Assembly (NCBI RefSeq): GCF_036321535.1
Contig: NC_087436.1
Location: forward strand, 20,958,001-21,022,000
Direction: 5' to 3'
DNA length: 64,000 nucleotides
From: Camelus dromedarius
Lineage: Eukaryota
This document shows, one piece after another, positions 1-14,570 of this stretch (positions are counted from its first letter, which is position 1; each line of letters opens with the position of its first letter). The position numbers were made by a program, and so were the translations under genes. The notes below the pieces were generated by a model. The model had not been told where the DNA came from and ran no database searches. It saw only the letters and a program-made list of their open reading frames with translations.

Positions 1-2889
1 AGTAAGAAAGTTGGAGTAGATGTTCCAAGAGACCTTGTATGGTAATATGTAAAAGTACATTTTGAATTAATTGGGATAATATTTAGATTGACCTTTACTC
101 AGGGAACAATGCAGACAAGTCGAAAGCTGATTAAGCAACAGAAAGGGAGGGGCCCAGAGTATAAGAGGACAAAAAGCAGAAGAGAAACCCCTCTGTAATC
201 CAGGCCCTAAGAGGTTCAGGAAAACTGCGTCCATTGCTTAATGGTAACATATTTGCTCAGATGGCCCAGTGGAAGATTCTGTTGTAAAAAGCCCTGTTTA
301 AAATAAGCTTAGTCACAGAAATTTTGCAACTCTGCATTACTGAACATGTCCCCAGATGTCATTAGCTGATTAGGGTCTTAGGAACCTGGGAGCGTCAGAT
401 AGACATGAGGGCTATCAATGTAGCATCAGAACATTCTTGGTGCTTGCTGGGGATATGTTTTGTGGAGCTTGGGGTTCCTTACCTTGGATTTTGAAAGTAG
501 CTTAAGCATCTGAGGATGTAGAAAGAGACATTTCTTTTGTTTTTCCTGAGTGACATCTTCCAACCAGGGGTTGGTTTATTTAATTTGAGGTGCTCGATAA
601 ACTTCTTTAAATTCTTTAATTGTGAATCTATTTTAGAATAACCAGCATGTTCTTTAAATGCAATTAAATCCTAGAAAATATAAAAGCTTATCTGTGTGAT
701 CAGAGCCTGTGTCCTTTCAAACTGACACTGGGAACTCTGAAGCCTCTGAGCGTTCCTCATACCACTCACCAAGCACAGGTATTAATCCCTATTGAAATAC
801 TTATACAAGGTTATCTGTTTTTTCAGAATATGAAAGAAAAACTAACTATGACAAAGGTCATTTTACAGATCAGCTACCGAAATTAGATGGTTAAGGAAAT
901 GATGTTAAAAATATTTTTTATCAAGTTATTCTTAGATCATTTATTTATTTACTATAAATAAGTATTTATTTACTTACTGTGCTGGTGGTTTTAGGTGACC
1001 GTGTTATGAAATTGTATCAGACAATTAAATCTGGAGAATTAAAGCAAGTATTTCTAAGATCATAAGTGGAAAATTTCAGCCTCAAATCAGTTTGGCAACC
1101 AACCAGTTTTTACAGAATATGCCGCTCACAGATGGGACTTGGCTAAAGTCTGCACAATTTGTTTGAAATTGCAAGGACTGTGACTGTGTTACTCTAAACA
1201 ATGTATTGCCTTCAATATTAGATATTCCTGAGTTCTGACTTCAATTTAGAGCCTTGGGACTTCTGCCTCTACTTCTTCGGAACAAAATTTCCACTAAATG
1301 CTCCTCCCCACTGAGGAATAGTGGCTGGAAAAGAAAGAATTCTATCTATTTGCTAGAGGGTTAAAATTATTTTGATAAAGTTCGAAACTCTTTTTAATGA
1401 GCTCTCTCTACCTAAGCATTTTCTCCTTTCGATAGCAAAAAAGTTACATAGATTTTGCTTATCCCTTGAAAATACTGTTTTTCCCCTTCTCTGACCTTGT
1501 TTGAAATTAAAAGCATTAAAGTGCCAGTTTCAAGAGATGTTAGATCCTACTGCTGGGTCTTTGCCATCTTTTTTACAACTTGCTATAATTTTCTGTCCCT
1601 TTAAGCCCTTAACCTACAGGCCTTCTGCACCAAAGGCAAGGCCTACAAGTGATAAGGACTCTCTGAGGAGCGCCTCCTGTGCCAAAGGACTGCTTATCTT
1701 GGTCTCTGTCGAACACAAGATGGGATCCTCTTATAAAGAGTTCTGGGCATGTCTCCCCCACCCCCCACATCATCCTTCATGCTATTGACAGTGATCTTCC
1801 CAAAATGAAAATCTGGTTCAAACCCTTCATTGTCCTTCTGCCACCTTAAAGTCCAAAGTCCACACCATGGCCCCAACACACATCATTTCACTGCTTCCTC
1901 TGCTTCTCACATCACATGCTGCAACCACGTAGACAGTTGCAATTCCAACTTGTGATGATGTCTCAAGTTCCAGGACATCCCTGACCCTGCTGACTCTGTA
2001 CCTAAATGTCCGCAGAGTTGGTGGGATGAAATCCTAGACTTCTTTCAAGGTGAGTTCAGAGAACCCCTCCATGAGGTCTTTCCACCTCCTTCTTTTTCAG
2101 ATAGAATTGACCATTGTCTCCTCTGTGCCCCTGCTCCCCTAAAATACTTCGTTACACTTAGATTACATTTTGTCCCTCTTTACTAAGGTGGAATTTCCTC
2201 GATGGAAAGACCATGAATTATTTATTAATTCATTGTATTCCTAGTACAAAGTAGACATGTCAAAACACTCTTTTGTAAATGAACACACAAGTGAATAAAT
2301 ACCCAAGGTGCCAAGTAACCATCAAGGCCTACAGAACACATCTGGATTCTAAATGGTCAGTCATTAAGATTTCACTGAGACTTTGCCACTATGCCAAGCA
2401 CTGGGGACTTTGTGGAGTGTTTAGTCTAAATCTAAGTTAGGGAGGTCGTCTCTCAAAGCCAACTAAAATGGCTTTGAACTGAGACCTAAATAGCAGACAG
2501 TGAGGCAAGATGGGGCCACAGGAGGATATTCCTGCCTAAACAATTCAAGGGTAAACTGAGTAGGTGACAGCTGGTAGAAAGACACAGGTCTCAGTACACT
2601 GTCCTTAAGTAGACTGATCAGATGTGCCCAAGACATTTTCCATTCTTTGTGGATTCTCCAGGAAACCGTGAGTGTTTAGCTGAGGAGTCAAGGTTATGCT
2701 GTCCCTGGGAAGTGTCTGCAGGTGCCCTTCTACCCTCATGCCATCATACTGGGATACCAGTTCCTTCACTAGAAAGTCTCAAAGGAATAAGCAGAGACAC
2801 ATCCAGAGAGTTTAGTGCACTGATGTTTATGTCAGAATGGTTTATAACTCTCATAAGAGTAAAAGTAACATGAATGCTGAAGAGGTTGA

Positions 2890-3330
2890 TAAACTACAAT
2901 ATTCATATAATGGAATACTATGCAGCCATCAAAAATCTTGTAATAGAAGAGTATTCAAAATATAGGATGTATGTTCATGGTGTATATTTTTAAATACTAT
3001 TTACATATTGATACATATTTAAACACAATGATTCCATATTTAGATGCAACAGCTAAAAGTTCAGATGGCTATATACCAAAATGTTTAAAGTGTCTGTCTC
3101 TGAAGGGGGTGGGTCTAGCTCAGTGGTAGAGTGCATATCTAGCATGCACAAGGTCCTAAGTTCAATCCCCAGTACTTACATTAAAAAAATTAAAAAAAAA
3201 TCTAAGGAATATATTCTACAATGTCTTTCTCTGGGTAGTGGAATGAAAATGGTTTTTATATTTTTATTTGACCTTTCTTATATTTCCCAACTTTAATTTG
3301 TTGAATCTATATTGCTTTCACAATTAAAAA
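2890..3330 (+). mobile_element. Old L1 3'-end fragment interrupted by a SINE
   Basis: Contains atggaatactatgcagccatcaaaaa, typical of L1 3' UTRs, and ends in an A-rich tail. Confidence 0.6.
3105..3200 (+). mobile_element. tRNA-Ala-derived SINE (camelid Vic-1-like)
   Basis: A box (tagctcagtggtagag), B box (gttcaatccc) and A tail. Confidence 0.85.
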
Positions 3331-4240
3331 ATCTTATTTAGTTGATAAAATTTTACAAAGTAATTTATAAATTTTAAATGTATAAAACTTATTTAAAAAT
3401 AAATACATAATTGCTTAATCATAAAAATCAATATATTATATATTGAGATTTTTTTTAAATACAAGAGAATACATATCCAGTATTCATATTTGTGTGCATA
3501 TATATTTGTGGTAAAGAATAATCACGACCTAGAATTCATTACATCACTTGCTTATCTGGATCCTCAGCCAGTAATCAGAGACCGGAGCCAGCATTTCCTA
3601 CAATTCTATTACAACTCTGAAATTCTACTTTTGAAAGAGAGAAAAGAAGTACACTGGGGGAACCTTAGAATTGACTCACCCTCTATCCAGCTAGAAGAAA
3701 ACTGACTCTAATAGTGTCTTTGTTTTCATTTTTCCTGTGGAAGTAAGACTGTACCCAGGAGGTGGAGGCAGGGAGGCATGGGGCAGAACTTTAGTCTTTG
3801 TGTAATGGCCGTGAGTTTCCATCTTTCTTTAACATGGACAGTTTTCCAGTTATATAAAATGCAATGCAAATACAGCTTCAGGTCTCCCCCTTTATGCAAA
3901 TGACTACAGCCAACGTGAATGTAATGTTCATTACATGCCAAGTACTATACTAACTGGAATGTGTGTGGGTGAATGTATCCACACATGTATATTTATTAAA
4001 CTCATTCAGTCCTCACAGTGACATTTTGAGGCAGGTATTATCTTTTTATAAATGAGGAAATCAAGGCCCACTTTCCTCATCTGTCAGGCCCTGCAATGTA
4101 GAATTTCTGGACCTGCCGCTGGAAGAGAGGTGAGATCACTGTGTCTTTTGTTAGATGCTCTATTGTCCACTCATCACCTCATTCTTAATCCCTTTCTTAA
4201 TTTCTCTTTTATACCATTTCGCTTTCCGGGAACTTCTCAG

Positions 4241-4306
4241 CAGCAACCACTCCTAGTAGAGGTCCTGCAGCTACAACTCCAGGCCCGACACAAGGGTACC
4301 AACAAG
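4241..4306 (+). CDS. GYPA: Glycophorin A extracellular mucin-like exon (exon 2/3-like), (A)ATTPSRGPAATTPGPTQGYQQ
   Basis: Long pyrimidine tract, then ttctcAG at 4239-4240 and donor AAG|gtttgt at 4307. 66 nt, phase 1-1, open, Thr/Ser/Pro-rich with an internal AATTP..GP repeat. In frame with the downstream exons. The flanking intron resembles human GYPA exon 2 flanks (recalled). Confidence 0.75.
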
Positions 4307-4599
4307 GTTTGTTCAAATTTTAAAATAGTTCCTCTGGAGTCATTGTTATGATGCAAATCTATTGAATGCGACCTGTCACTGTTGGGAAACTGTGACAAAG
4401 ACTGAGAAATGGAAGTGAAGTAGGCAAGAGTCCCTCCTCTAGAGGAATTCTCACTTCTGGAAAGGCTCACAGAAATAATATTATAGGTTAAAGAAATTAA
4501 AGCAATTCAGCAGGCCACAAAAATGATGAATGTGACCATGAAATGGTGAGCCAGATAAAAGGGAACTGGTAGAGCAGTGGTGAGGAGAGCCTGTGGTCA

Positions 4600-4800
4600 A
4601 ATCCAGATGGACTCAGCCCTGGGCTTAGCCCTGCCCCCGCTGCTGACTCTGCATGAGCTGAACCCTCAGTTCCCCAAAGGGCCTGTCTTCTTAATTTGAA
4701 AATGGGGCTCATTATACTTATCCCGCAGTGTTTCTCTAAAGATTAAATGAGAAAATGTGTGTAAAATTGCTTGGCTCCAAGCCTGACACATCAGAAGTGC
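4600..4800 (+). mobile_element. MIR SINE
   Basis: MIR core-like: cctcagtt...aaaatgggg...gattaaatgagaaaatgtgtgtaaa...cctgacacat. Confidence 0.65.
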
Positions 4801-5269
4801 CTATTAAAGTACAAGCCAAGCTGAGTGCTGAGATAAGGGTGGTCAGGCAGCATCTCTTTCTCTGGTTATTTTTCTAGGGAGAAAAAGATGGCTTTATTAG
4901 AGCTGCTTAAATGTAGAAAGGGAGAGGGTCTTTTGTCAGTGGGGTTTAAGTGGAAGGATCCTCCAGATTTAAAATAAAGCCTCAAAGAAGACTAAGCATG
5001 ACTACTGGATCATTAGCTAATAGAAACACTGAGAAAATGCCCTGAGGTAAATGGAAGCGATGGATTTTAAGAACAGAGACCAAGGGAGGGAAATCAGGCT
5101 AAGTGCTTAGAACTCATTCTTAGGCTTCTGGGTTCGATTACACAATCTAATTTTCAAAGTGATTTCAGTGTGAAGCCGACATGACAGTGTCAAACCAGAA
5201 AGCATTTAAGGGGCCAACTACAAACACACATGCCCTGAATCCCATAAATGATCACGGGCATGGTGGACC

Positions 5270-5460
5270 ACTGTATTAAGTGTTTTCATGCATTATTGAA
5301 TTTTATCCTCATAGAGACAGAATCATCTTCATTTGCCCAAGAGAATACTAAAGCACAGAGAAATTAAGTCACTTGTCCAAGACCACACAACTAGTAAGAG
5401 GCAGACACGTGACTGAAGCCGATTCTGTCTTGATCCAGAGCTCGTACACCAGCCACAACT
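5270..5460 (-). mobile_element. MIR SINE
   Basis: gcacagagaaattaagtcacttgtccaagaccacacaactagtaag, the antisense MIR signature. Confidence 0.7.
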
Positions 5461-6249
5461 ATCACCTGCCACAAAGATCAAGAAGACAAGCCCAATTCAC
5501 GTCTGTGCATAACTGCTGAAGAACGACCAAACATAACGGAGTCCTTGACTGTGTCATGCAATATACTGTAACATGTTATTTGTAATCATTAAATTCAAGA
5601 AAATTGTGTAGCAATAGTAGTAACGGGGCTTCTTGACATAAATGGCATTCAGAGACAACAGAAAAAGAAATGTAAGATGTGAAACTGGTAAGGGAGAGGT
5701 TAACTCTAGCAGAGCATTAAGGCAATGGTACTAGAAACTTCTGCAGGACGGGAACCTAGTGGGACTGCTGGCAAACACTCCGCTAAGACACAGTGAGGGT
5801 TTGAATTCTGATAGTGGCTGTGGCATAAATCTGGAAAATTGACAGCAACAGGACCTTTTTTGGGGTTGGACTGATGTCCATGTGGAGTGATGGCTCAGTC
5901 TGTCTCCTTTCTGCTCACCATTTTACATTTTTGAAAAAATGCACAGCTTCTAGTGGAAGTCAACAGCTCTTCCAACCTTCTCATACCCTTCCCTTTAGTT
6001 AGTGAGATGGTTTGCTAATTTCTGATTCATGAGAACTCGCTGGATAGTTGAAAGTAGATACTGGAATTACTAAAGTTAAGACTGACACCTTCCCCCATAA
6101 TTTTTACTGGCTAACTGTTGAATGCTGAACAGCAGCACTCCAAACACACTTAAGGAAAAGAAACCCACTGAGCAGTCTAATGCCAAAACAGTATTTTTAA
6201 AAACATGACTTATGTTTTCTGACTTTATTTTGAAATTTTGTCTTTTTAG

Positions 6250-6285
6250 AAGTGCCACAATATGAACCCCCATTCTCAGCACCAG
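6250..6285 (+). CDS. GYPA: Glycophorin A exon 4 homologue, (E)VPQYEPPFSAP
   Basis: tttgtctttttAG acceptor and CAG|gtatgt donor. 36 nt, phase 1-1. Ends FSAP, like human HHFSEP just before the TM exon. Confidence 0.85.
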
Positions 6286-6399
6286 GTATGTTAGTATTTG
6301 ACATGGAATGATGATCATTGCATTTTAAATTGCGTATTGCTAGTTTCAAATGCCTATGTAAAGAAGAAGCACCAATTTTATTTTTTATGTTTATTTTCT

Positions 6400-6675
6400 T
6401 TCTTTTTTTGCTGTTTTTTTTTCCATTTTTATTGAGGTATAGTTAATGTATAATATTATATAATGTACAATATTATATAAGTTACAATATTATATATAGT
6501 GAGTCACAAGTTTAAAGGTTATACTCCATTTATAGTTTTTGTGAAATATTGGCTAATTCCCATGCTGTACAATATATCCTTGTAGTCTCTTTCACACAAA
6601 ATAGTTTGTACCTCTTATCCCCTAGCCCTATATTACACCCCTCTTCCTTCTCCCCACTGGTAACCACCAGTTTAT
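6400..6675 (-). mobile_element. L1 3'-end fragment (antisense) in GYPA intron
   Basis: Poly-T followed by ttattgaggtatagtt...ccatgctgtacaatatatccttg...ccccactggtaaccaccagttt. Confidence 0.8.
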
Positions 6676-7985
6676 TTTAAAAACAAAAGAGTACATGTTA
6701 TTGACTTTTGTCATACAAAATTGTAAAAGTAAACAAAATATGTTCTTTTTAAAATTAAAATAGGTATTTCTAATTTCCTTAAACATTTTGAAAACACCAA
6801 CACATAACTTAATTCTCATTTTTAAAAAAATTAGATATTTTTTAGCTTGCTAACCAACCGTGGGTACATGGGAAAAGTCTAAGAGCTTATAAAACAATTG
6901 AACTTCTCCCTTCCCTACTATAAAGAAAGCAATTAATTGGCAGCACATCCAGAATAAATATAGACCATTCATGCCTCAATCCAGATTCATTTTTGGCCCC
7001 ATACTATCACTTTGGGGCTATCTTCTCAACCTGCTATTACTGGGGACTGTGGCTCCCTTCTTAGGTGTTGCGCTGGTTCATTTACACGCTTCTTTACTCT
7101 TCCATGTTTCTAAGCCTCCCCTCACACTTGGCCTGTGCTCACACTTCACACCATAAAAAACGAATTGTACAACTGAATCATTATCTCACAAATTAAAGCT
7201 AAGTGGAGAGAAAGGTTGGGCAATACGAGTGAGAGGAAAAGCTACTTTTACTTTTTTGTATCAGTAAATAGGCTTTTAAATATATATCAGTCAAATAAAT
7301 ATGCTACTAATATGCGAAAGGGTCTCTAATTTAAATTGTGTTTCACTCCCAACATGGAAAAGATTTTTAGTGATTTTATTATAGACTATGTGTAAGGATA
7401 CTGTGGAAGGAGCAGAGGCTTAGACTACAGGTGACCTGGACAGTAGTTACCAATGTGCTTCTAACTAGTTGTCCCACCTCAGATAAGTAACTCAAACTCA
7501 TTAGGCTTCCTCATTTCTAAACTGCTTATACCAATTTCCTTCCAAATTTCTGATTCTACGATCTGTCCAATACCCCTTTACACATCAAGACATTATTTTC
7601 TTCCATACCTTTGAAACACTGAAAGAGTTTGTGGTTTTTCTCATGTTGGCATAAAAGGTCCATACAGCTCTCATCCGTAATTACACTTGGGAGACCCTGT
7701 AAAGAACACTGGGGTTGGAGTTGAAGCCCCTGGGTCTTGGTTCTGTCATTAGTTATGTAGCCTTGGACAAGAGATTTTACCACTTTAAGTTCCAGTTTCC
7801 CACATGGTTACTGTGAAAAATCTAATTTTTAAAAAGATAAAATATACATAAAAGTTTACTAATGTACTTTCTATTAAAAAGGCAAAGCGGTATTACCCTG
7901 ACTTTGCCTGCTTTATTTGCCAACTGTTATGCGGTCCTTTATTTCACATTTTTATATTTTGCTGTTTTCTTTTTCTCTCCCCCAG

Positions 7986-8068
7986 TAATAACAGTCATTG
8001 TTTTTGCGGTGATGGCTGGAATCATTGGAATTATCCTCCTAAGTTATTACTTATTGGTAAACATAAAG
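7986..8068 (+). CDS. GYPA: Glycophorin A transmembrane exon (exon 5), (V)ITVIVFAVMAGIIGIILLSYYLLVNIK
   Basis: Strong acceptor (ttttctctcccccAG) and donor AAG|gtgagg. 83 nt, phase 1-0. The peptide matches the glycophorin TM signature (human [22 protein letters not shown]) and is visible in ORF 7862..8098. Confidence 0.95.
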
Positions 8069-9820
8069 GTGAGGATTCAGCTTTTAATTCTGCTGTAAGT
8101 ACTGATGTGAATAGCTCTAGGAGGGTTTGCTCCTCTGGGTTTAACTCAACTCAAACAGAAACAAAACTGCATGAAACTTCATCATTGTCCATGAGCCCAT
8201 GGCATATGCAGAGATGCTTAAACATTTCAGGGCTGGTTTCTCTGTTCGTATCCAATTCTGGTGCCTAGGAACAGGGACCCGTGCTGAGGCCCAAGGACAA
8301 AAACCCCCCTTCCTGTAAGGAAGAGGGCAGGTCTGACCCTGAAGCCCAGTAAGGGACAATCTTAGGCTTTCTGTTTTTCTTGCTTTTATTCCCCATTTTT
8401 TGTTGGCCTTGTGCTGGGTTTGTTTACAAAAGATGTATTTTGTTTAACCAAGTATGAAAAATGTAAAATTCTGTTCATAAAAACAAACCTTCCATCTTTT
8501 TCAGCTGGACACACAAAAGTGACTGAGTTACTCGAGCAGAAATTTTTCTTTTTATCATTTGCCCTATTAAAAAACCACAAATATAAATCTATCCCCATTT
8601 TCCAGTGAAAGGTCCTTCAAAAGTTTTAATTTAATATTTTTTGATGGATATGGATGAAATAGCCAAGTTTCTAGTTATAGTATCTAGTTTATGTATGTGA
8701 AAAATATTTAAAATAACATGATATGTTTATGCATGTTTAAAACATTTGCTTTTTTTATTCTCGTATTTCCTGAGACAAATTTTTCAAACTCCACCTATGA
8801 ACTTTCCAGCATGAGTGATTTTTTTTAATCACTAAAGCTAATTTCAAGTCTGTATGATAGCATTCCAAAGCACACAACCTTCACTATAACCTATTTAAGA
8901 CAATTCAGATGCCACATTTGTGTGTTTATAATGCTAATAATTGGAACTATAGTCATAGATCATTAGGTACCTCGTCTCAAAAGAATGGTACAGTTCTCAC
9001 CCACCCTCTACTGTTTCTCTCTCTTTGTGCTCTCCACATTGTAACCACTGTATGTATTCTTTTAAAAAGGCTTGTTTAGAGAGGCAACAACACTGTAATG
9101 GCAGGTCTATAACAAGTTGATAGTAAATCTACGTTAAGTTCTTCTGTCCTTTTCTTTTTTAACTATTTCTATTAGGTGAGTTTTATGAACATCCAAATCT
9201 ATGTTTGGTTAGCATTACTCCATGTAAATGTATTTTCTCTAAGTAATACTTTCTTAATAAAAGTAATTGACAGTGTCTGCTCTAATATGAGAGATTTTTT
9301 AAGGACTTGAATAAAAGATGACTCCTCTTGTTGGCAATTTGAACACTGGGGAAAAAGTTATCTCCTTGTATTTGGTATAGACGGCAAACTGTTGTCTTCT
9401 CCCTTGGTTGATGACCTTAAATCTAAAAAAGTCAACGATATCTCTTGGTAAAAGTCAGAGAAAATCTTCTATATGGACATAGAAGAATTGGGTCATGGTC
9501 AATATGACTAAGAAAATGTATCTTTAAAAAAAAAATTCTATTTGGGCTTTCCACTACAGCAGGGAAATATGACAGAGTCAATGTCTAGGGGAATATTATA
9601 CCTATGGAAATAAGAAATACTATTAGAAATACAAATAAAAGTTTAAATTAAAATTTGTAAATATCTATGAAATAGTAATTTCTTCCACAAAAGACCTCTG
9701 CAAAGTGAATTTTAATCAAAACAAACTTTAGCCAAAAAAAATTTTTTTAATTTGAGGAATTTTTACTTACTAAGTATAGAAAATTGTGGCATTAACATTT
9801 TTTCTGGTTTTAATTCGTAG

Positions 9821-9901
9821 CGAAGAGCATCTGTCAAACCATCTCAACCCTCCCGGATATAGGTGTGCTTCTTTTAACTTCTGTAGAGACAGAAAGACCA
9901 G
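9821..9901 (+). CDS. GYPA: Glycophorin A cytoplasmic exon (exon 6), frameshifted: RRASVKPSQPSRI* (TAG 9860-9862); ancestral frame PDIGVLLLTSVETERP lies in another frame
   Basis: ttttaattcgtAG acceptor and CCAG|gtcagt donor. The 5' half matches human KSPSDVKPLPS in one frame and the 3' half matches PDTDVPLSSVEIENP in another. Length is 81 nt instead of 3n+1. Confidence 0.85.
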
Positions 9902-10204
9902 GTCAGTGCTAATATTTTTACTGCCTTTTGCCTTTTTGGAAGGGAAATAAATTAACGATTTATTTCTTTCTGAGTTGGGAAGGGTGCACCCAGTTAGAAT
10001 TCATTTACATTCTATTTCATCAATGCCTCCTCTGTAAGATTTTATCCTTTATATGAATGTTTATCTGCAGCATAATGAAACTCCCCCTTAGGCATAAAGT
10101 ATCTTTTAAAAAAGAAAAAGTAAAACAAATACCATAAGTAAAGCAAAAACTAAGTTCTTTTATGTACATCTTATTTTCCCAAGTGCAAAGTTGCATCATA
10201 GGAG

Positions 10205-12368: not shown

Positions 12369-13151
12369 CACATGATTCATAGTTGGGGGGAAATGAGAAA
12401 AAGAGGGTCTGAATCAGCTGTCCACAGTGGCAGCCACATGTGACCCCTGCCAGCCCACTTCTTATGGGAGAATTTGAGGATGCACGGTTCCTGTAATTCC
12501 CCAGCAGAAGAATGCCGTGGGGAATGTTCTGCTTCTATAACAGCAAAGGCTCTCCCCATCCCTTCACGCACCCTCGGCAGTAACATAAACCTAACCTACC
12601 GGCCAAGAAAGGTAGAGCATCGGATTTGGTCGGAAAGACCAGCCCCTGCCCTTCCATCCCATGCTAGAATCAGAGAGGACTCTCGCAGGGAGTTTCTGCA
12701 CAGACTTGCCCTTGCTTATGTCCAAGGGAAAAAAAAAGTGATTCCTGAAAGAGATTACGGACTAAGAAGCTTGTCTTAAATTCAAACACACATATGTAAT
12801 AACTCAACTGACTTATCACTGACTGCCTCCCCATGACAGTCCACCCCTACAGAATTCTCTGTTAGTTTCTCATGTTTGCAGAAACTAGAAACAGAGGAAT
12901 TATGTTTGTTCCCTACCTAAGGCTTTTGGAATAGATTTCTAAGACATTTTTTTGTTACACATAACTCTAATAGAGCTAATCTGAAAAGAAATTCCTTTCA
13001 GTTCCTAATAATTGTATTCAAGGACAACTCTTAAGAATGTAGAATCCTGAAATTTATTTTATGCATTAATTTCCTGTGGTATTTAAATATAACTATGTTT
13101 TACACTACAGTTTTGTATTTTTTTCTCTCTCTCTCTATAATCCTTCTACAG

Positions 13152-14570
13152 AATTGATGAGAATCTGCTCACCAAACCAAGTTTTGGAAAAACTCAAAGA
13201 CAAAAGACTTCAGTCAAATATGTGAAATTCAGTCAAGTGAAAAATGAACACATAAAAAACCAACAAATTGTTTACTTTCCTACGTTGTATGAGTTCAGGA
13301 TAAAAATTTCATCATAATGAGTCTGGTGATAAATACTTCCTTTTACGCTTACTTTTGTGTGTTAGCATAATTTTCATAATCCACTGATTTAGAATTCTGA
13401 TCCAAAACTTTAGTTGGCTTCATCTGCCATTCTTTAAGACTGACTTATTCTACTGTATTTTAATGATTCTGCTGTCAAATGAAAGGCTTATAATATCTAC
13501 ATAAAATCTAAGTTCTCTTCTCGTTCTAAACTTCTGAGTCTATTTTCACTGTTTTGATTAAATTAGGAGCACAGCAAAATGCTATTATTTCCCTCATTGC
13601 TGAAAAGGCAAGGTATGGTATTACATGAATGATGACGATGTTTTAGTCACACTAATAAAGCTTGTGCTTGGAAATGCCTTGCATACATACATACATATGT
13701 ACACATACATACATACATGTATGTGTACATATATGTAAAGACTAGGACATAGATATAAATATATAAAATGATACCCACATTCATACTTTAATGCATAAAT
13801 CAAGTTTTTCGCATTAAAAAAGTGAGATGTTACCTACGTATAAATGGCTCATTTAAATGAACCTATCTAACAGAAGGGCATTAACTCGCCAAGGGCACTG
13901 ACCGATGCACTGTATTCCACTGGAAGAGTTATTTATGTCAGTAGGCAGAGTATCCTGAGAAAGAATTGATAACTTTTCCTTGCGAAAGAAACTTCTTCAT
14001 AACTTTGTTAATGCAACAAGATGTGCAAATTTGCCATGCAGGTAAATATGTTAAAAGGCTACTCTGCATTCTCAATTAAATTCTTTAATCCGTTCAGTTC
14101 TTGTTTCTCTTATTAATAAAGTTTTGGAAATTGGTTTAAATAATCCAAAACTCTGGATACAAGACACTAAGGGTTTGTGACTATACAGTTATCACTCATT
14201 TATAGTAAAACTTGAAAAGCAATATAAAAACAAACAACCTTCTTGCGATGTTCTATTTCCAAATGAATAAAAATCCATATGGCTTTCCATTGCTGTGTGA
14301 TAAGTAAGTAACGATGTGTACATAATGGGCTTGGCAATTTAAATTTATTTTTAATAAATATTTTAAAAATCTAAACTTTAACTTACTTGTATGTTCAGAG
14401 TATTCTTGTACTAAACTGATTATTTAAAAGTAAAGAATAAGAACAATATACTTCTGTTTGTATATATTTTTTAAAAGTAGCTTTAACAGTATTATTGGGT
14501 TAATTTAATCAAATGAATAACCCAAGCATCAAGGCAATTTTAAATGTACTTTTTCAATAGAAATAAAAGA
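13152..14570 (+). other. GYPA: Glycophorin A terminal exon (exon 7) and 3'UTR; 3' end uncertain
   Basis: ctctctataatccttctacAG acceptor, then TGAGAATCTGCTCACCAAACCAA...GACTTCAGTCAA...TTTTGTGTGTTAGCATAATTTT...AGAATTCTGATCCAAAACTTTAGTTG, matching the human GYPA 3'UTR as recalled. AATAAA at 13654, 14115, 14266, 14353 and 14562. Confidence 0.85.
13682..13737. repeat. (CATA)n/(TATG)n simple repeat forming a perfect 16-bp inverted repeat
   Basis: 13695-13710 atatgtacacatacat is the reverse complement of 13717-13732; the loop is 6 nt. Confidence 0.9.

Follow-up and report, generated by a model that had tools for sequence, protein, structure and literature searches.

Does the dromedary make a glycophorin A (GPA) whose cytoplasmic tail has been cut short and, if it does, what does this mean for the camelid red cell? 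The question is raised by exons 3-7 of the glycophorin gene GYPA, which lie within a 64,000-nt stretch of dromedary DNA, called the window here. Exon 6 is frameshifted here, with the conserved tail motif left out of frame behind an early stop. The red cells of camelids are a well-known oddity, and the only glycophorin we found lacks the region to which studies in human have linked band 3 trafficking and ligand-induced stiffening. A band-3-rich cell that manages without this tail is a natural test of what the tail is for. The evidence set out below makes it probable that the truncation is fixed in camelids and tolerated there.

Gene structure and genomic context

The features of the locus are collected in Table 1. 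All GYPA exons in the window (3-7) have canonical splice sites, and exons 2-5 are open, exon 2 lying approximately 10 kb upstream of the window. The transmembrane (TM) exon matches Pfam family PF01102 with E=1.7e-4 and 22.3 bits on 27 aa, a score that falls short of the cut-off of 30.1 set for whole proteins, as is to be expected of so short a query; its top five PDB matches are all glycophorin A (E 0.001-0.05 over 27 aa). PF01102 is present in full-length camelid GPA models, as are a signal peptide and an S/T-rich ectodomain encoded in short exons. When the window's four coding exons were spliced by script, the result was exactly the last 74 residues of RefSeq dromedary isoform X1, while the Bactrian camel and alpaca models differ. 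The dromedary and Bactrian models show a one-Gln difference at the end of exon 3 (4241-4306), and there is a Leu/Ser difference in the TM exon. In RefSeq, each of the dromedary isoforms X3-X5 lacks one of the ectodomain exons.

Table 1. Features of the GYPA locus in the dromedary window
Feature	Position	Strand	Basis
GYPA exon 3, 66 nt, Thr/Ser/Pro-rich ectodomain	4241..4306	+	AG/GT flanks; matches P0010 aa 30-51
GYPA exon 4, 36 nt, pre-TM ectodomain	6250..6285	+	AG/GT flanks; matches P0010 aa 52-63
GYPA exon 5, transmembrane, 83 nt, phase-0 end	7986..8068	+	Pfam PF01102 E=1.7e-4; PDB glycophorin A matches
Possible compensating indel pair (-1, -2); shifted frame = IGK, orthologue-like	8051..8062	+	Best path at 3/4 penalties
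Candidate branch point (A at 9795), pyrimidine tract, first downstream AG = TAG ending 9820	9792..9820	+	AG-free 9780-9818
GYPA exon 6, 81 nt, net -1 frameshift in first 35 nt, extra codon ~9868-9870	9821..9901	+	Donor GT at 9902
Tandem AAG acceptor; exon from 9826 = 76 nt, ancestral frame	9823..9825	+	Sequence; candidate only
Premature TAG, 39 nt upstream of exon 6/7 junction	9860..9862	+	Identical C-terminus in dromedary, Bactrian, alpaca models
Stranded ancestral motif LTSVETERP, 3' of stop	9874..9900	+	0/5000 shuffles; top + strand window site
GYPA exon 7 (3' end provisional), now all 3' UTR; first AATAAA at 13654	13152..13670	+	Acceptor; exon-7 homology to P0223; RNA-type runs

We found a single copy of exon 6, and a single copy of the TM exon, in the 2.31-Gb assembly. 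Genome-wide family and protein searches, whose yields are lower bounds, found no second glycophorin gene (other matches had E of at least 0.21), and the candidate of a back-up paralogue supplying the full tail was rejected on the same searches. Approximately 105 kb downstream of GYPA, on the + strand, lies a 1740-aa ORF with ten Cadherin_3 matches (G000:C1:21076390-21080334). We take this ORF to be exon 1 of FREM3, in keeping with the same-strand GYPA-FREM3 order of human, and we found no second glycophorin TM exon between it and GYPA.

Elsewhere in the window, positions 3105-3200 hold a tRNA-like, A-tailed short element that presumably belongs with the camelid SINEs it resembles. The longest ORF in 16000-64000 is at most 160 aa, and the window as a whole has seven ORFs of at least 120 aa. 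The segment 52001-56000 is AT-rich and strongly A-skewed.

A frameshift and a stranded motif in exon 6

Joined to the phase-0 end of exon 5, frame 1 of exon 6 reads RRASVKPSQPSRI and then stops at TAG (9860-9862). The coordinates, frame and stop proposed by an earlier, sequence-only reading of this DNA all hold, with the acceptor TAG ending at 9820 and the exon running over 9821-9901. Frame 3 of the same exon encodes PDIG...LTSVETERP. Against a profile of 26 orthologues, the nine-residue motif at 9874 scores 28.3; none of 5,000 shuffles of the exon (0/5000) equaled this score, and the runner-up site on the window's + strand reached 17.0. Searched on its own, the frame-3 tail matched nothing in Pfam or PDB, and the profile test was used instead.

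The size of the change can be read by comparison with other mammals: 32 nt precede PDIG in the camel, while in pig P0212 and human P0091 the matching Pro-Asp comes after 11 codons, giving a net change of -1. The sequence-only reading had proposed a 1-nt deletion near 9852. Its net loss stands, but its position does not, since a scan with a single frame switch is flat, staying within 26.7-30.4 over all codons of 9821-9854 and dropping beyond them. We therefore rejected 9852 as the pinned site of the lesion, although the scan allows it. At the two higher frameshift penalties, the best path has a 3-nt loss at approximately 9830, a 2-nt gain at approximately 9845 and an extra codon at approximately 9868. 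The lesion is a net -1 change somewhere in 9821-9855.

Two other candidate lesions were considered. The TM exon is one codon under the length seen in the orthologue panel, whose consensus at its end is IG[K/R]L, and a pair of compensating indels at 8051-8062 could account for the camel sequence there. The shuffle test gave P=0.057 for the score and 0.32 for the gain; the pair is suggestive only, and we dropped it as an established event. If these indels were real, the three indels could have arisen in any order and the decisive shift could even lie in exon 5. A second lesion in exon 7 was dropped as an argument, exon-7 ends varying widely among orthologues.

The truncation is shared among camelids

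An independent check on the frameshift is whether other camelids have it. RRASV[K/R]PSQPSRI is the C-terminus of four dromedary isoforms (X1, X3, X4 and X5), of one model from the Bactrian camel and of one from the alpaca; predicted (XP_) models thus annotate a product with the short basic tail in 3/3 camelid species found (dromedary, Bactrian camel and alpaca). These RefSeq models (XP_064345570.1, XP_074233998.1 and XP_072832512.1) are exactly the truncated product found in the window. The truncated product is thus already in RefSeq for three species; the models are automatic and leave the stranded motif, the frameshift and the tandem acceptor unflagged. No paper describing the camelid truncation was among the matches listed in our literature search, which covered few subscription journals.

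The lesion sits in a C-rich stretch, a setting that lends something to the idea of an assembly error or an allele private to this animal, but the separate assemblies of three species, whose longest contigs measure 123.3, 136.6 and 123.7 Mb, agree on both frame and stop. Because the models of all three end in the same frame and at the same stop, we conclude that no assembly error is involved, and we give an artefact or private allele next to no chance. Nor does a sister species speak against the frameshift: at the protein level, the 82-nt exon that would have restored the frame was seen neither in the Bactrian camel nor in the alpaca.

Since the truncation is common to dromedary, Bactrian camel and alpaca, it predates the split between Old World and New World camelids, approximately 16-17 million years ago. 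The motif is kept by pig and by 13/13 cetacean species (as LTSV[E/K]), and by parsimony its loss is therefore derived in camelids. The proposal that this lineage makes a short, basic-tailed GPA from the GYPA locus itself is borne out for camelid GYPA as annotated in 3/3 species; the label 'glycophorin-B-like' that came with it is only partly apt, as we discuss below.

Tandem acceptors and the choice of exon 6 start

Three tandem AGs at 9819-9827 allow exon 6 to start at 9821, 9826 or 9828, in three different frames, leaving 19, 55 or 85 residues after the TM core. An exon starting at 9826 restores the ancestral frame, and its 55 residues include 6 acidic ones. The frameshift might in that case be bypassed, with a main or substantial isoform using the AAG acceptor and keeping LTSVETERP. 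In favor of such a bypass, the acceptor is present in the sequence and restores the frame, and the motif is still nearly intact, the sole indel in it being a whole codon. However, no earlier AG follows the candidate branch point than that of the upstream TAG ending at 9820, and a TAG acceptor prevails over an AAG one. The camel ancestral-frame tail is in none of the 238 proteins that we fetched (checked directly up to P0232), and the longest dromedary GPA model seen, among isoforms X1, X3, X4 and X5, has 104 aa. In the phase set by 9826, moreover, exon 7 gives no ancestral C-terminus; it reads LMRICSP..., a frame seen only in the exon-skipping, primate-like P0204. We therefore consider a bypass of this extent quite improbable, and minor use of the 9826 acceptor may occur.

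Skipping of exon 6 (8068 joined to 13152) would bring a stop after one more codon, 7 residues after the TM core. Such a tailless isoform, which would be truly like glycophorin B (GPB), was not seen among the fetched models.

Fate of the transcript

The stop at the end of the shifted frame lies 39 nt from the last known junction (exon 6/7). Transcripts escape nonsense-mediated decay (NMD) when the stop is within 50-55 nt of the last exon junction, and from the position of its stop camelid GYPA mRNA would escape if exon 6/7 is the last junction. The other shifted frame runs through exon 6 without a stop and terminates only in the last exon. A shift into either frame within this short penultimate exon would thus be exempt from NMD, and escape is therefore no sign of design: of the earlier claim that the stop was 'placed to escape NMD', the distance of 39 nt, inside the 50-55 nt zone, survives and the word 'placed' does not.

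Position 13152 is the start of the exon-7 homologue, 25/40 residues being identical to the exon-7 read-through of P0223. We found that 14 RNA-type runs from 5 studies contain 83-95% of 60 words sampled over 13110-13670, where one of the runs is recorded as RNA and 13 are guessed to be, and where the 3' UTR word shares are uninformative on exon 6. The GYPA 3' UTR is probably transcribed.

These data bear on the idea that the gene is decaying, its mRNA degraded or its tail-poor protein retained, as glycophorin B is, in the ER/Golgi, leaving camelid cells near GPA-null. Several indels are clustered in the cytoplasmic part, and one study reports that the glycophorin TM carries a retention signal counteracted by the tail (PMC9653601), both of which would fit decay. 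Exons 2-5, on the other hand, are open with canonical splice sites, 20/21 residues of the TM core are identical between camels and alpaca, and the 3' UTR words are present in the 14 RNA-type runs. We regard decay as very unlikely.

Loss of the distal tail motif across mammals

We compared GPA tails in a panel of 144 of the 238 fetched proteins, from 88 named species; the remaining 94 were excluded as unnamed, redundant or fragmentary. A species was scored as motif-bearing if at least one of its models, most of them predicted, has the distal motif. On this measure 64/88 species have the motif and 24/88 are without it. The motif-less set comprises the 3 camelids, 5/5 ruminants, 5/5 caniform carnivores, 2/2 Rhinolophus, 2/2 manatees and 2/2 dasyurids, and also includes single models from puma, Pipistrellus nathusii, hedgehog, shrew and tenrec. 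Outside camelids, the models of 21/85 species lack it. Examples among the ruminant, caniform, horseshoe-bat, manatee and dasyurid models are P0211, P0112, P0125, P0152, P0016, P0159 and P0040. P0213, which has a caniform-like TM, keeps the motif. Many of the motif-less calls rest on single predictions, and some are probably isoform artefacts. The panel suggests that the distal GPA tail motif has been lost repeatedly in mammals, a small comparative result in itself. At the same time, the motif is kept in 64/88 species and is therefore not freely dispensable.

The 19 residues that follow the TM core in the camel include 5 basic and no acidic ones; the human tail has 38 residues, of which 5 are basic and 7 acidic, and the pig and horse tails have 59 and 49 residues. 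Tails free of acidic residues occur in 7/88 species; of the placental groups, camelids alone contribute several species to this set. Across the 64 motif-bearing species, the number of acidic residues ranges from 2 to 16.

Band 3 and red-cell shape

The sequence-only reading had hinted that the altered tail might be linked, through band 3 trafficking, to the elliptical red cells of camelids. Ruminants, dogs, seals and horseshoe bats have discoid red cells. Similar tail losses in other mammals make a link to the oval shape of camel cells doubtful.

Published work, cited here from excerpts, bears on what the tail does. One study reports that band 3 trafficking is enhanced by the GPA tail and, in simulations of human GPA, that PIP2 makes contact with the basic residues of the juxtamembrane segment (PMC6080803). 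A human cryo-EM structure shows GPA bound to band 3 via its TM helix and an extracellular peptide (10.1101/2022.02.10.479914). Tailless GP.Mur still promotes surface expression of AE1 (band 3), and MkMk cells keep their AE1 content, with lower transport (PMC9653601). Camel GPA keeps the TM helix, the outer peptide regions and the KRR cluster. In alpaca, band 3 runs above human band 3 on gels, shows no difference by immunoblot and is mostly skeleton-bound, and the shape and rigidity of the cells are ascribed to a 4.1R exon-14 variant (PMC9926112). Antibody binding fails to stiffen human cells in which glycophorin is without its cytoplasmic domain (PMC2115236).

There is thus no sign of a band 3 shortage in camelids, and oval, rigid cells are not predicted from loss of the tail. 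The hinted link is weakened both by the 21 other motif-less species and by the plentiful band 3 of alpaca, and the GPA truncation is a weak explanation of oval cells. It is real and family-wide, but unlikely to be key to camelid cell shape.

A more specific alternative is that the design of the camelid red cell includes the short, purely basic tail, which would bind PIP2 or skeletal proteins differently and so help to fix band 3 to the skeleton or add osmotic resistance, alongside the 4.1R exon-14 variant. The tail is common to both camelid tribes and has 0 acidic residues where the motif-bearing species have at least 2, and the PIP2 contacts and tail-enhanced trafficking of human GPA, together with the skeleton-bound band 3 of alpaca, also count in its favor. 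Against it stand the discoid cells of motif-less ruminants, dogs, seals and horseshoe bats, the fact that alpaca band 3 is not scarce and that shape and rigidity are ascribed to 4.1R, and the effect of tail loss in human cells, which abolishes ligand-induced rigidity, the opposite of camelid stiffness. We judge a role of this kind unlikely. Its fullest form would be a family-wide 'tail-swap' of the only glycophorin, in which a stub with 5 K/R and 0 D/E and a recoded juxtamembrane segment were selected with the 4.1R exon-14 variant, locking band 3 to the skeleton and making the elliptical cells rigid and resistant to osmotic stress; the tandem acceptors 9821/9826 might in addition let maturing erythroid cells change between the stub and the acidic tail. 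This we consider rather improbable.

The explanation that we favor remains a fixed and tolerated truncation. Before the Old/New World camelid split, a net loss of 1 nt within 35 nt of the exon 6 start would have been fixed in the single GYPA gene. The main mRNA would join exon 5 to 9821, stop at 9860-9862 and escape NMD, this stop being no more than about 50 nt from the last junction. Its predicted product would be a single-pass glycophorin of approximately 104 aa with signal, O-glycan-type ectodomain and TM helix intact, ending inside the cell in the juxtamembrane KRR cluster followed by a basic, proline-rich stub of 13 residues that replaces the acidic tail. The change would have been tolerated, and may have been nearly neutral, because band 3 is bound via the retained TM helix and outer peptide and because the distal tail is weakly constrained across mammals. 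A practical consequence is that antibodies or peptides directed against the C-terminus of GPA should not work in camels or the alpaca.

Comparison with known glycophorins

In most respects the camel gene resembles human, pig and horse GPA (PF01102): the exon layout, the S/T/P-rich ectodomain, the TM helix and the juxtamembrane basic cluster are alike, and, as in human, the locus lies upstream of a FREM3-like ORF. The GPA hallmark that is absent from the camel protein is the acidic tail with its distal LSSVE-type motif, which is found in the DNA 3' of the stop. Unlike the tails of human, pig and horse, that of the camel is short and free of acidic residues, with the [LP][ST]SV[EK]-type motif encoded out of frame.

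The camel protein is like primate GPB, GP.Mur and Miltenberger V in being a glycophorin without an acidic C-terminal domain, and to this extent the label 'glycophorin-B-like' fits. GPB, however, is a duplicate beside an intact GPA, while camel GYPA is the sole copy found, genome searches (lower bounds) having shown no duplicate beside an intact gene. The near-zero cytoplasmic domain of GPB is also absent: the camel has 19 residues after the TM core, compared with approximately 8 in P0219 and P0222, which we take to be GPB-type, and 38 in human GPA. Calling the camel protein 'GPB-like' is thus an overstatement.

The closest parallels are the ruminant, caniform, Rhinolophus, manatee and dasyurid tails, in which the distal motif has likewise been lost from the annotated glycophorin. 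The motif-less placental groups differ from the camel in that their tails, known from protein models, are 21-57 residues long and retain 2-11 acidic residues.
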